The notes under the pieces were generated by a model. The model did not search any database and was not told where the DNA came from. It was given only the letters and a program-made list of their open reading frames with translations. A stretch of 64,000 nucleotides of DNA from Octopus vulgaris (lineage: Eukaryota): the NCBI GenBank assembly GCA_951406725.2, contig OX597815.1:91078001-91142000 (forward strand), read 5' to 3'. This document shows positions 1,100-59,792 of this stretch, in pieces; the stretch's first letter is position 1, and the number at the start of each line of letters is the position of its first letter. The position numbers and the translations under genes were made by a program.

Positions 1100-1980
1100 T
1101 TGATATACCTGGTATGAAAAGGCGATGCAGTCCCCAGAAAAATGGGTGTCTACCAAACCCCAATGAAGTAGTCTCAAAAATCCATAATACTCTGACAACC
1201 AAGAATATATGCCTTCTTTCTCTTGGCTTAAACGTGCATGCTTGAGAGGCGGCATATTATCACCCGCTTTTCAATGCTTTTCTCCTCGAAGTGAAACTTG
1301 AAAACGTTGATAGAGGCTTGGTCGAATAGGAAAGCCTTCACTCTTAGCCTTTTCAGCCATGTGCATCTCACAGGAAACCTGCCTGCCTTTACCAGCAAAG
1401 GAGGCGGTGTGATCTTCAAGATGAACTCAACTGACAGCTGCATCTGTTCTTTCTACACGTGACTGTTGTTCGATAAAGCCCCATAATTCAATGCTTTGAC
1501 AATGAACGAATGCAGAAGTACTTCACCGTTCTGCTCACATTTCAAACAGACCTAGATGACAGCATTTTTCTACCAGTACAATTTATCTCGAACTTGTAAT
1601 AATTCCGTGTAGCACTAACAGGCAAGAGATTTCTGGGAGTTATCCTTAATTGCCCATTTAAAAGTTATTTGAAATAGAACAGGACATGACTTCCTGAAAT
1701 TGTCTTTTTAAAAGCATATTGAAAGCTTTCCATTTTTGATGGGTGGGTATATCACTTTTCACATTTCTTTCCATTATCTTTGATAAATTCCACAGCCACG
1801 GAGACACAGCATTTCCTGACACACAGCTATCACGCTTCCAGCTCCGAGTGAATGATGTTGACAAAATTTCTTCCATTGCTATTAACGATAATTACAATAT
1901 CCTCACTTAGGCAAAAGCACGTGTATTTGAGTGTTGTTGCTGTCCCAGTTGTTCTTCCAAACATGTCGCTAGAAATCTTT
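1100..1980 (-). mobile_element. Degenerate L1/Tx1-clade LINE ORF2 C-terminus
   Basis: Manual minus-strand translation across frameshifts and stops: KDNSQKSLAC*CYTELLQVRDKLYW ... VCLKCEQNGEVLLHSF/VHCQSIELWGFIEQ (C-x2-C...H-x4-C knuckle then W), then ...WLKRLRVK...INVFKFHF. Resembles the zf-RVT/CCHC end of L1/Tx1 ORF2. Confidence 0.55.
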
Positions 1981-2659: not shown

Positions 2660-3000
2660 GCAGTTTTGGCGGAGGGATGAGTCGATTACACCCGCCCCAG
2701 TGTTCGACTGGTACTTATTTTACCGTCTTCGAAAGGATGAAAGGCAAAACGACCTTGGCGGAATTTGAACTCAGAACGTAGCGACGGGCGAAATACTTAT
2801 TTCTTTACTACCCACAAGGGGCTAAACACAGAGAGGACAAACAAGGACAGACAAACGGATTAAGTCGATTACATCGACCCCAGTGCGTAACTGGTCCTTA
2901 ATTTATCGACCCCGAAAGGATGAAAGGCAAAGTCGACCTCGGCGGAATTTTAACTCAGATCGTAGCGGCAGCCGAAATACCGCTAAGCATTTCGCCCGGA
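2660..3000 (-). mobile_element. Two-unit Deu/Nin-like SINE composite
   Basis: Two reverse-strand copies of the core (GAAAGGATGAAAGGCAAA...GAATTTGAACTCAG) joined near 2797 (GAAATACTTATTTCTTTA). Confidence 0.85.
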
Positions 3001-3404
3001 TGCTTAGCAGACGCTCAACATAAGCCCACAAGTCAGCAATTCCCGGACCCTAAACGAATATGCGCAGAACGGTTTCGTCAGTCTGCGCACACCTTGAAGA
3101 AACCTATCCGTGCCTGTAGAGTTTATCTCGAACCGATATATATATATATATAACCAAATAATTTCTATATTTTACTGTCACCGTTGCTGCTGTTGGTTTT
3201 ATTTTTATTATTTTTGATAATCCAATATTTCCTATCATACTGGAGGAGCATGTCAACATTCAATAGAAGATGCAAATTGCTGCGAAAAGACGGTAACAAC
3301 AAATGAGATTCTGATGTTGGTAAGTGTGTGGGCGAAGGGTAAGTAGTTTAGCCTGGATTATATTTAGTACGGGCTTTGTGTAAACATGTCAGACATGTCC
3401 ACTG

Positions 3405-11402: not shown

Positions 11403-12027
11403 TAATCCTTTCTATACTATAAGCACAAGGCCTGAAATTTTTTGGGGAAGGGACTTAGTCAACTACATCGACCTTAGTGCGCGACGGGTACATATTTTAT
11501 CGACCGCAAAAGGACAAAAGGCAAAGTCGATCTCGGCGGAATTTGAACTCAGAACGTAAAAGAACGGATGAAATGTCGTTAAGCGTTTTGTTCTATGTGC
11601 TAACGAGTCTTATTTCTTTATTTCCCTCAAGGGGCTAAAAATAGAAGGGACAAACAAGGACAGACAAACGGATTAAGTCGATTACATCGACTCCAGTGCG
11701 TAACTGGTACTTATTTAATCGACCCTGAAAGGATGAAAAGCAAAGTCGACCTCGGCGGAATTTGAACTCAGAACGTAACGGCAGACGAAATACCTATTTC
11801 TTTATTACCCACAAGGGGCTAAACACAGAGGGGACAAACAAGGACAGACATAGGTATTAAGTCGATTACATCGACCCCAGTGCGTAACTGGTACTTAATT
11901 TATCGACCCCGAAAGGATGAAAGGCAAAGTCGACCTCGGCGGAATTTGAACTCACAACGTAACGCAGACGAAATACCGCTAAGCAATTCGCCAGGCGTGC
12001 TAACGTTTCTACCAGCTCTCCGCCCTT
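11403..12027 (-). mobile_element. Three-unit tandem Deu/Nin-like SINE array
   Basis: Three consecutive reverse copies of the core; one intact head at about 12027; junctions near 11793 and 11610; last unit has a different tail. Confidence 0.9.
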
Positions 12028-39617: not shown

Positions 39618-40015
39618 TATGTATGTCTGTACACATGTATATTCTTGAATACATACACACATATATATGTATCTGTGTGTTAAAAAATACAAATCAAACA
39701 GATACAGAAGTCGAGTTATCCATAGTTAAATCATTATTTCATTATTTTATTTTATTTTTTACCTTATAAAGTTAAGAAAAATAAATTTTCTGAGTTCAGA
39801 AATTTATTGCAAAATGTCTGTATTGGCACCGAAGAATCGATAACAATCGTTTATATTCTCATTATTTATTTGATGAGGTCACTGAGTGGCAAAAGCACTA
39901 AAGCGCTGGACTAAAATTTTACAGTATTTAAATGGGTCCTTTTGCACTCAGGTTTCAAACTACGCCATGGTCTACTTCAAGTTTCATATATCTAAATAGT
40001 ATTAATAATAAACAA

Positions 40016-40592
40016 GGCGGCGAGCTGGCAGAAACGTTAGCACGCCGTGCGAAATGCGTAGCCGTATTTCGTCTGCCGTTACGTTCTGAGTTCAAATTCC
40101 ATCGAGGTTGTTTAGCCCCTTGTGGGTAGTAAAGAAATGGGTATTTCGTCTGCCGTTACATTCTGAGTTCAAATTCCGCCGAGGTCGACTTTGCCTCTCA
40201 TCCTTTCAGGGTCGATAAATTAAATATCAGTTAATTTATCTGTGTTTAGCTCCTTGTAGGTGGTAAAGAAATAGGTATTTCGTCTGCCGATCCTTTCGGG
40301 GTCGATAAATTAAGTGCCAGTTACGCACTGGGGTCAATATAATCGACTTAATCCGTGTCTGTCCTTGTTTGTCTCCTCTGTCTTTAGCCCATTGTGGTAA
40401 TAAAGAAATAGGTATTTCGTCTGCCGCTACGTTCTGAGTTCAAAACCCGCCGAGGTTGACTTTGCCTTTCATCCTTTCGGGGTCGATTAAATAAGTACCA
40501 GTTACGCACTGGGGTCGATATATTCGATTTAATTCGTTAGTCTGTCCTTGTTTTCCCCCTCTGTGTGTAGCCCCTTGTGGGTAGTAAAGAAA
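40016..40592 (+). mobile_element. Four-unit Deu/Nin-like SINE array bounded by one 12-bp direct repeat
   Basis: One head, units restarting at GGTATTTCGTCTGCCG (about 40140, 40274, 40411); TAATAATAAACA at 40003-40014 and 40593-40604. Confidence 0.9.
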
Positions 40593-41177
40593 TAATAATA
40601 AACAGAAAGAGTATATTAAATCAATTACACCTATTTCCCATAAACAATAGTCTTTCAACCAATTTTTGAAATCGTTTTTCATTTCATGGAAAGTGCTATG
40701 AGGGAAGAATGAGTAGAGCGCCAGACAAAATGCCTTGTACTATTTAGTTACATCTCCGTGCTACCTGAGGTTAAGTTCTGCAGAGGTTGAGTTATCATTT
40801 AATACCCCCAGAGATTGGTAAAGTAAGTTCCAGTTAAATACTGCGCTCGAATCAACAGGCTACATACTTCCTATAAACGTATGGCCTTATGCTAATATTT
40901 CAAATACGTATTCGTTAGAAGCGTAGTATTTATTGCCGACTATGAACTGAACGATCTTCAATATTTGAAAATCACTTTCGATTCTATGTTAAACCCAAAT
41001 ATACTCGTGGATATATGTGTCACTTTTATATTTAAAATATTAACTTAATAAATGAAAGTGTAGTGATACGCAATAAAGTACTAGACTAAATACTTTCCAA
41101 TGATAAATTTTATCCTTCAATATTCTTAGTTGAAAGACTAGGAGGGTCGATTTTGTCAATTATGTATACCTTATAAT

Positions 41178-48250: not shown

Positions 48251-48832
48251 TATTGGTTTCAAATTTTGGCACAAGGCCAGCAATTTCGAGGAAAGCTGGT
48301 AAGACCATATAATCGACTCCAGTATTTGACTGGTACTTATTTTATCGACCCCAGAAGGATGAAAAGTAAAGCCAAGCCCGGCGAAATTTGAACTCAGAAG
48401 GTAAAGATGGACGAAATACCTATTTCTTTACTACTCACAAGGGGCTACACACAGAGGGGACGAACAAGGACAGACAAATGGATTAATTAGATTATATCGA
48501 CCTCAGTGCGTAACTGGTACTTATTTAATCGACCCCGAAAGGATGAAAGGCAAAGTCGACCTCGGTGGAATTTGAAATCAGAACGTAACGGCAGACGAAC
48601 TACCTATTTCTTTACTACCCACAAGGGGCTACACACAGAGGGGACGAACATGGACAGACAAACGGATTAAGTCGATTATATCGACCCCAGTAACTGGTAC
48701 TTATTTATCGACTCCGAAAGGATGAAAAGCAAAGTCGACCTCGGCGGAATTTGAACTCAGAACGCAGCGGCTGACGAAATACCACTATGTATTTTGTCCG
48801 GCGTGCTAACGTTTCTGCCATCACGCTGCCTT
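48251..48832 (-). mobile_element. Three-unit Deu/Nin-like SINE array
   Basis: Junctions GACGAAATACCTATTTCTTTA (near 48420) and GACGAACTACCTATTTCTTTA (near 48604); diverged head and diverged last unit with a different tail. Confidence 0.9.
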
Positions 48833-50541: not shown

Positions 50542-50773
50542 AGGCGGCGAGCTGGCAGAAACGTTAGCACGCCGGGCGAAATGCTCAGTGGTATTTCGTC
50601 TGCCGCTACGTTCTGAGTTCAAATTCCGCCGAGGTCGACTTTGCCTTTCATCCTTTCGGAGTCGATTAAATAAGTACCAGTTACACACTGGGGTCGATAT
50701 AATCGACTTAATCCGTTTGTCTGTCCTTGTTTGTCCTCTGTGTGTTTAGCCCCTTGTGGGTAATAAAGAAATA
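50542..50773 (+). mobile_element. Young full-length Deu/Nin-like SINE with 12-bp TSD, nested in an older copy
   Basis: Complete head-core-tail; AGGTAAATGATA at 50527-50538 and 50773-50784; old core upstream (GCTTTGCCTTTCATCCC) and old tail downstream. Confidence 0.92.
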
Positions 50774-58549: not shown

Positions 58550-58812
58550 TTCGACTAAGATTCTTCAAGGAAGTGCTCCTTCAGGGCTATAGTCTAATAA
58601 CAGAAACAAGTAAAATATTATGTGTGTGTGTGTGTGTGTGTGTATGTGTGTGTGTGCGTATGTGTGTGTGAGCTCCACCATGGCTGCTGTCTAATAACAG
58701 AAACAAGTAAAAGATTATGTGTGTGTGTGTGCGTGTGTGTGTCTGTGTGTGAGTGTGTCTGTGTGCACCACTATGGCTGCAGTCTAATAACAGAAACAAG
58801 TAAAAGATTATG
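58550..58812 (+). repeat. Three tandem copies of a SINE tail, each followed by (GT)n
   Basis: GTCTAATAACAGAAACAAGTAAAA(G/T)ATTATGTGTG at about 58592, 58689 and 58782. Confidence 0.85.
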
Positions 58813-59792
58813 TGTGAGTGTGTGTGTGTGTGTGTGTATGTGTGTGTGTGCGTGTGTGCTTACTCTTCGTATGGGTGATGGGTATGAAGAGTAAACACAT
58901 CTATATATACATATATGGATGTGTGAATGTGCATACGTGTTCTTGTATTTGCACATATGTGTATATATACGTATATACTTGTATGCATGCATGCATGCAT
59001 GTATGTATGTATGTATGTATGTATGTATGTATGTATGTATGTATGTATGTATGTATGTATGTATGTATGTATGTATGTATGCATGTGTGTATGTATGTAT
59101 GTATGTATACGTGCGTACTTGCAGAAGTACAAATTTTCATAACTTTGTTCATACTTTATAAACGAATATTTCATTCTTTTATTAGCCATAAACTTTATTT
59201 ATATTTAAATTTCCTCTATCATCTCCATTTAATTTATTCCTTTATTGTTTTAATTTTATTCACCTACTCTCTCTTATCTCCAATCAACCTGTAAACCCCT
59301 CAACCGAACATATAACAATAACAGTCAAATGACTTAAACAAGTAAAAGAATATATACATATTTTTTATTCATATTCTGCAGAATCAACAGAGTGACTCAA
59401 GGGCTGATTTTTTTTATACGTTAGCACTTATCAAACTAGTTAGAACTCGAGGGGTGATAAACATATATACAGGCGATAATAGAATTTCTATATTATTATA
59501 TAGTACAGCAAATTCATTTAGTAAATTTATATAGAGGTGATAATAGTATTTCCCAGGATAGTTCTGGAACAAATTATAAAAACAATTACAATATCACGTG
59601 GATAATTCATATTTTTCAAATATTTTGCCCATGTCGCTGTACAATAAATAAATACATAAATAAATAGGGAAAATTGTGCATACTTACACACACATGTATT
59701 AGAGTGCCAGTGAATATATATACAGTAAATATGTATGCATATATATGTATGCATATATATACATATATATGTATGCATATATATATACATAT

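Follow-up and report, generated by a model that had tools for sequence, protein, structure and literature searches.

The SINE array and its neighbors in the window

Four SINE units in tandem, sharing one head, lie at 40003..40604 on the forward strand of the window, by which we mean the whole stretch of 64,000 nucleotides that was analyzed. As predicted from the letters alone, the single head is found at 40016, and each later unit, with restarts at 40140, 40274, and 40411, begins with GGTATTTCGTCTGCCG directly 3' of the preceding tail. The 12-bp direct repeat around the array, TAATAATAAACA, is also present, at 40003..40014 and 40593..40604. Positions within the SINE refer throughout to a 231-bp majority sequence from 514 hits, in which the restart is position 48. 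Measured against this consensus, the count of four units stands as an array, but three of the four are internally deleted or truncated: the units are 124, 134, 137, and 184 bp long and span positions 1-93 plus 201-231, 48-141 plus 197-231, 48-63 plus 108-231, and 48-231, respectively.

Unit 1 (40016..40139, forward strand, like all features of the array) consists of a head of the G43/C48 subfamily (consensus 1-47) followed by the two stretches 48-93 and 201-231, with 107 bp absent. Unit 2 (40140..40273) restarts at 48. Unit 3 (40274..40410) carries only the 16 bp of positions 48-63, which is the modal duplication length, before continuing at 108; from its sequence, it may represent a target-site duplication (TSD) plus a 5'-truncated insertion. 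Unit 4 (40411..40594) has a complete body, is distinguished from unit 1 by G48 and by its base at position 64, and is presumably the original host of the array. The 5' direct repeat would then be the TSD of this host copy; by the register of the family, its last 10 bp are the TSD, and its 3' counterpart overlaps the tail by 2 nt.

A 16-mer search yielded 12 matches in the window with up to two mismatches, against 0.01 expected, and the further junctions reported at about 2797, 11793, 48420, and 48604 all proved to be there, within three loci on the reverse strand. At 2680..2999, a young unit (30-231), preceded by a LINE fragment, is fused at 48 to an older-family body. At 11448..12024, a head and two young units joined at 48 are followed by an older-family copy that was entered near position 15, a re-entry located near 11610. 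At 48312..48830, a head, two young units, and an older-family body are connected by two junctions, both at 48. At 2797 and at 48420, the downstream unit has another tail and is from an older SINE family. A full 231-bp monomer lies in unique DNA at 50543..50773 (forward strand), and its TSD begins with GGTA, as in the SINE-internal site.

Some other repeats were seen alongside. An L1/Tx1-type ORF2 fragment at 3002-3135 (reverse strand) is joined directly to SINE position 30, possibly by a template switch or a nested insertion; it was rejected as a member of the LINE family discussed below, since other copies of its own family are flanked by (ATC/ATT)n. An old L1/Tx1-type ORF2 remnant, 35% identical to the active family, lies at 1258-1677 (reverse strand) with a similar tail downstream, and at 58591-58859 a 93-bp unit with a TG run is present in 2.8 copies.

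The restart had been placed at the loop of a head hairpin where a tRNA anticodon arm would sit. Folding backs the hairpin (40048..40073) and puts position 48 (window 40063) at the 3' edge of a 4-nt loop, but the anticodon label is unsupported. Motifs resembling an A and a B box can be recognized by eye at SINE positions 11-21 and 73-85, and neither ARAGORN nor Rfam returned a tRNA match for the SINE. By A-box spacing in the standard tRNA numbering, an anticodon would be expected about 10 nt further 5' of 48. The head variant G43/C48 (window 40058 and 40063) forms a compensatory pair in the hairpin; in other organisms (runs X16-X20), C48 accounts for about 10% of the depth in B and C, as against less than 1% in D and E. 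We considered whether the hairpin might be a requirement for insertion and rejected this, a 4-bp stem being present at 1 of 48 unique sites compared with 5.0 in shuffles. Nor is the self-complementary junction required, given that the same tail end occurs on a LINE flanked by (TC)n and that the LINE using site 48 ends in AAATT. The SINE may resemble the Nin/Deu-domain SINEs, with their central conserved Nin domain, and we presume that the tRNA-derived octopus SINEs OK, OR1, and OR2, described by Ohshima and Okada in 1994, are probably the same or sister families.

Re-entry sites, hosts, and the single head

Genome-wide, the junction between tail and restart gave 38,496 exact 21-mer matches in 2.8 Gb, while the reversed-pattern control gave 0. 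The claim of one fixed restart nucleotide holds insofar as position 48 is dominant throughout the genome, but there is a second fixed site, position 15, with 3,567 exact matches. In a set of 252 tails that was enriched for the junction, 102 led into unique DNA and 150 into SINE sequence; re-entry was at 48 in 132 of the latter, at 48 with a slipped base or a GAAATA repeat in 6, at 15 in 10, and elsewhere in 2. In 400 kb of unselected sequence, 11 of 28 tails re-entered at 48 and 2 at 15, the other 15 leading into unique DNA. Plotted on the consensus, as the original prediction had proposed, re-entry positions are concentrated at 48 rather than spread evenly. The monomeric SINE is short, non-coding, and dispersed, with at least 84,794 tails beyond those found at junctions.

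The balance between the two sites differs among organisms. In one RNA run from another organism with the same head, joins from tail to 15 outnumbered those from tail to 48 by 992 to 68 reads, and position 15 prevailed likewise in the other two runs of that organism; these runs are unstranded and size-selected, and the reads reflect genomic copies. Read ends did not pile up in any of the three runs, whose library type would not reveal such a pile-up, and no RNA record was listed for the array. Contigs of four more organisms gave 48:15 ratios of 33:7, 30:7, 8:8, and 5:15, with counting incomplete. Such a shift of the preferred site among lineages is not expected of a stall or a cut that is set by RNA structure.

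That the restart reflects targeted insertion is supported by TSDs that start exactly at 48, by hosts that are independent older copies, and by a LINE that lands at the same base. A search pattern in which part of the site precedes a complete new head had 163 matches in the genome. Thirty of these loci were examined, including two pairs that overlap or look duplicated. In 25 of them, SINE sequence resumed at 48 beyond the new full-length insert, and the two sides often had a private variant in common; 11 of the 30 inserts adjoined an older tail, not a head, on their 5' side. The hosts of the arrays, most of which were sampled from the first 3.7 Mb of one contig, belong to the young family itself and to two older related families. 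Many arrays end in an older-family body, with positions 1-166 in common and a different tail. These old-family last units diverge from their own majority by 0.094, much as free old copies do (0.092; p=0.65), unlike the first units (0.056; p=3e-5). The flanking duplication of the old element is kept in 10 of 36 old-family arrays and in 9 of 46 free copies, as opposed to fewer than 1 in shuffles. In unique DNA, 48 TSDs were confirmed among 156 terminal tails; they measure 11-23 bp, mostly 11-21 with a mode of 16, and begin directly after AAAGAAATA. Separately, GGTACTGGCA was noticed 3' of three SINE copies (L077, L081, and L088), inside what appears to be another repeat, possibly a second preferred host.

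One option raised in the original prediction was that the reverse transcriptase switches from one RNA to another where an RNA ends or arrests it at the hairpin loop. Position 48 does lie at the loop edge of the predicted hairpin, dimers join unrelated units, and most junctions lack a duplication, all of which speak for such jumping; yet where duplications exist they begin at 48, the last units are often of older families and retain the age and flanking duplication of an old element, LINEs land at the same base, and position 15 is the site used in related organisms whose head is the same, as the read and contig counts above indicate. Template jumping leaves the TSDs, the older hosts, the LINE insertions, and the position-15 shift unexplained; for arrays ending in an old family it is largely refuted, and overall we regard it as very improbable.

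Descent of all arrays from one ancestral dimer or segmental duplication, which the original prediction had named as one of its refutations, is not what we find. The downstream bodies represent three families, one young and two older, and vary no less than free copies do, and the flanks differ at every locus. As a general explanation, single-dimer descent is refuted, and we attach next to no probability to it, although the units have no run of four T, so that read-through multimer RNAs are possible, and some young-only arrays may have been retrotransposed as whole multimers.

How an array comes to have one head can be judged from markers that separate the families. Seamless junctions account for 163 of 177. 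In arrays with an old-family host, the old allele is present in the head in 14 of 36 cases at position 19, in 4 of 36 at position 36, and at background level at 59-63, so that the host-derived share of the head, estimated from these 36 arrays and few markers, is about 0.39 at position 19, 0.08 at 36, and about 0 at 59-63. The young marker G43+C48 was found in 8 of 35 array heads and 20 of 79 free young copies, as against 0 of 45 old-family copies. A progressive collapse of double heads was considered and rejected, seamless and double-head inserts being equal in age (0.038 and 0.037); the join therefore likely dates from the insertion itself, when the end of the cDNA would have annealed to the head of the host.

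The two units of a dimer differ as much as unrelated copies do (0.104 versus 0.104; n=24), which indicates that dimers are independent insertions. Middle units of longer arrays are only 0.029 apart (n=15), compared with 0.074 for first pairs and 0.068 for last pairs, and long arrays would appear to have grown also by later DNA duplication of their middle units. The near identity of the middle units could alternatively point to repeated copying of a circular RNA of 184 nt that arose by cleavage at the loop and ligation of the tail to 48, the more so as the junction folds weakly (-1.4 kcal/mol). However, each array starts with a full head, the units of dimers are unrelated rather than identical at insertion, and first and last pairs that differ while middle units do not form the pattern of unequal exchange. 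With no ribozyme family of Rfam matched in the SINE units either, we consider a circular template extremely improbable.

We estimate a probability of about 80% that the arrays arise by repeated insertion of the young SINE at position 48 in older members of its own family and of the two older families, likely through target-primed reverse transcription (TPRT) with enzymes of the LINE that uses this base. The LINE endonuclease would nick the lower strand between positions 47 and 48, and copying would begin exactly at the end of AAAGAAATA. The SINE RNA probably reads on into the GGUAUUU.. of its source locus and may pair with the nicked primer, and such pairing of a trailer from the source locus would make target choice heritable. 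The end of the cDNA would then anneal to the homologous host head, mostly 5' of position 36. The incoming head would replace the old one, so that the array keeps one head, and the site would be remade behind each new tail, so that arrays grow; those of three or more units would expand further via DNA-level duplication. Read-through RNA pairing and homologous 5' joining are reportedly treated for R2/R1 in work by Fujimoto in 2004 and Anzai in 2005. The other option of the original prediction, cutting by a partner enzyme and joining by homology, is supported, except that the head is mostly that of the incoming copy, not the old one.

A LINE family that shares the site

A comparison of the SINE tail with LINE 3' ends, which had been suggested as a check, shows a resemblance to several LINE families. 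One LINE with such a tail uses site 48. A full-length copy of it, with a 15-bp duplication, sits at a tail|48 junction. A DNA search turned up 29 more copies: 27 of them have their ends clearly at site 48, one has lost its tail within a SINE, and the flank of the last is similar but not SINE sequence. Among 100 listed tail matches, 18 have SINE-type ends and were set aside; the remaining 82 terminate in AAATT, and site 48 is the location of 78. The family thus counts as sequence-specific by the measure of more than 20% of flanks that is given in the portion of PMC4494074 consulted. It has about 55 nt of tail in common with the SINE, the closest among the LINE families compared, and its age matches that of the SINE (0.071). 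Its specificity is about 95%, versus 14 of 31 unselected cases at site 48 for SINEs with 219T. A 2.4-kb copy at a C48 host consists of the 5' region and a mere ORF2 stub (L332:1840-4225).

The ORF2 of the site-48 LINE is 56% identical over 1,107 aa to that of a relative that is flanked by (TATC)n. This relative has two ORFs, the second of which encodes an APE endonuclease, a reverse transcriptase, and a C-terminal zinc finger (Pfam), with human L1 ORF2p as the best solved-structure match, far above R2. Among the 120 LINE homologs listed, there is no named Tx1, and the only named close homolog comes from Argonauta hians. From the likeness of the tails, the common site, and the age, we infer that the site-48 LINE is an L1/Tx1-type partner of the SINE; it may belong to the Tx1 clade.

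The (TATC)n relative is very active, with 150 scored matches at 99-100% protein identity (L221:619-4065, reverse strand), many copies with an open frame of 1149 aa, and 9,601 tail matches; a protein search of the genome with this active LINE returned near-identical copies only. It was rejected as the site-48 partner, the site adjoining 0 of its 100 listed tails. Sister families are flanked by (TATC)n, in nearly all of the 100 listed tails, by (TC)n, or by (ATC/ATT)n, and share the SINE tail less closely than the site-48 LINE does; the related LINEs with similar tails and (TC)n or (ATC/ATT)n flanks are found at L044, L177, L111, and L262-L285. In a further set of 44 matches with LINE-like tails, all 15 examined were SINE variants, and TATCTATC was not found directly after the SINE tail in the DNA examined.

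Choice of target and known parallels

In unique DNA, the target motif is GGTATT-like and present in both TSD copies. It is confined to the downstream side of the nick, where it fades by +6/+7 (48 sites), with little information upstream. What follows the tail depends on the SINE lineage: unique flanks start with G in 74 of 107 copies with 219T versus 6 of 55 with 219C (p=4e-13), and copies with 219C favor A- or TA-starts and site 15. Variants distant from the tail also track the flank, as with 195T (33 of 36 versus 41 of 71). The lineages that differ in target are of similar age (0.041-0.071).

The LINE tail, for its part, is followed by C rather than G in 47 of 82 cases. The C-followed copies placed on a tree, which were chosen by their 3' C, all fall in one young clade (20 of 20; support 99/99), apart from 24 G-followed copies; 15 of 28 G-followed copies were left off the tree, and even if all 15 were young, the youngest clade would be about three-quarters C. 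Its hosts have G43/C48 on the 5' side in all 13 ends found (14 fetched), an allele carried by 33 of 163 intact heads and by 2 of 112 SINE junctions. A C48 written from the RNA at the junction was considered and rejected, as the host itself carries C48. Template-written bases at the 3' junction showed no asymmetry (mismatches, 6 versus 7). RNA-written junction bases were therefore not seen, nor did the RNA runs of the other organism show an RNA with the trailer, and pairing of the trailer is inferred.

We give slightly better than even odds to the reading in which a read-through RNA trailer, by pairing with the primer, determines the site in concert with an endonuclease of loose specificity. 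In our analysis, such pairing would explain why targets track lineages with no change of protein, and PMC6530143 and PMC3649969 offer precedents for it. The same targeted insertion could take place with the site set by the partner endonuclease alone, in which case Tx1-type partners would have varied among the SINE lineages and an amino-acid change would lie behind the switch from G48 to C48. This is the standard view, target choice being described as mainly endonuclease-set in the sections of PMC4494074 used here, where SINEU-1/2 are also less specific than their partner. It accords with the occurrence of the motif in both TSD copies and with the separate target of each related LINE family, be it (TATC)n, (TC)n, (ATC/ATT)n, or SINE site 48; several partners could account for the pattern of SINE lineages, and the endonucleases of the young LINE and of one old, degraded copy are 74-81% identical. 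It is less easily reconciled with the near absence of information upstream of the nick, where heads and tails are equally good as context, with the different targets of SINE lineages of similar age, and with the finding that none of the 313 site-15 motifs present in 1.8 Mb adjoined a LINE tail. Moreover, a one-base switch beside the nick is what primer pairing predicts, going by the part of PMC3649969 at hand. The chance that the endonuclease alone decides seems to us somewhat below even.

A further step, which we put forward tentatively and with a little more doubt than belief, is that target choice is inherited through the RNA, the downstream flank of each insertion serving as the guide of its offspring. 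If this is true, copies landed in a SINE would home back to SINEs, lineages would lock onto 48, 15, or TA repeats, and the single-base host variant C48 would have redirected a whole young LINE clade with its protein unchanged.

The closest known system is that of SINEU-3 and Tx1-Mar in the crocodilian Mariner-N4_AMi (PMC4494074), a SINE and a Tx1-type LINE that share a target inside another repeat. As far as the account in the sections consulted goes, tandem SINEs there, too, arise by sequential insertion around the duplication, and the specificity of the SINE can fall short of that of the LINE. In octopus, by contrast, insertions go into members of the SINE's own superfamily, this SINE combines a head of apparent tRNA type with a LINE-like tail that lacks poly(A), and the joins, tens of thousands in number, are mostly seamless with replacement of the head; self-targeting, seamless head replacement, and an allele switch are absent from those sections. 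Target-specific APE-type Tx1 LINEs also include Tx1L in Tx1D of Xenopus and the microsatellite-specific Kibi and Koshi, here compared via the introduction of PMC4494074. The octopus LINEs are similar in this respect, with sisters that target (TATC)n, (TC)n, and (ATC)n, but the site-48 family differs in that its target is the SINE that it probably mobilizes.

For R2/R1, according to the relevant part of PMC6530143, RNA that includes downstream target sequence pairs there with the nicked target, which makes the reaction more efficient, and upstream target sequence helps full-length joining. There, the endonuclease fixes one rDNA site, whereas in octopus pairing is proposed to choose among sites and to be inherited with the SINE. 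In the snap-velcro model of L1, about four primer-terminal bases matter most and about six more help, as set out in the portion of PMC3649969 consulted; this resembles the decay of the octopus motif, although L1 pairs via poly(A) and the octopus SINE would pair via the flank of its source locus.

In the literature searched, we found no description of the octopus junction or of a LINE that targets a SINE in this way, although Repbase or Dfam may have the families; a 2026 octopus repeat annotation (PMC13282606) gives L1-Tx1 and SINE families, with the junction absent from the part consulted. On a scale of tens of thousands of events, the SINE receives its own copies and those of the LINE that is its likely partner. 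The natural switches of allele and site across lineages and species allow a test of endonuclease against RNA-DNA primer pairing in APE-type retrotransposons, and should the trailer prove decisive, insertion sites could be reprogrammed with short RNA ends. In genomes of this kind, repeat libraries will contain chimeric SINE families and mis-dated heads.

Finally, tandem SINE units are known to homogenize as arrays lengthen in SINE-derived satellites and Dip multimers (PMC10702118), much as in octopus; unlike here, the sections of that paper drawn on give no fixed insertion base or partner LINE. A unit of 64-67 bp, made up of the SINE head and the duplication, also occurs in tandem in octopus (G000:C10:17996023-17996498 and C5:87874184-87875487), and these runs are small satellites grown from double-head insertions.
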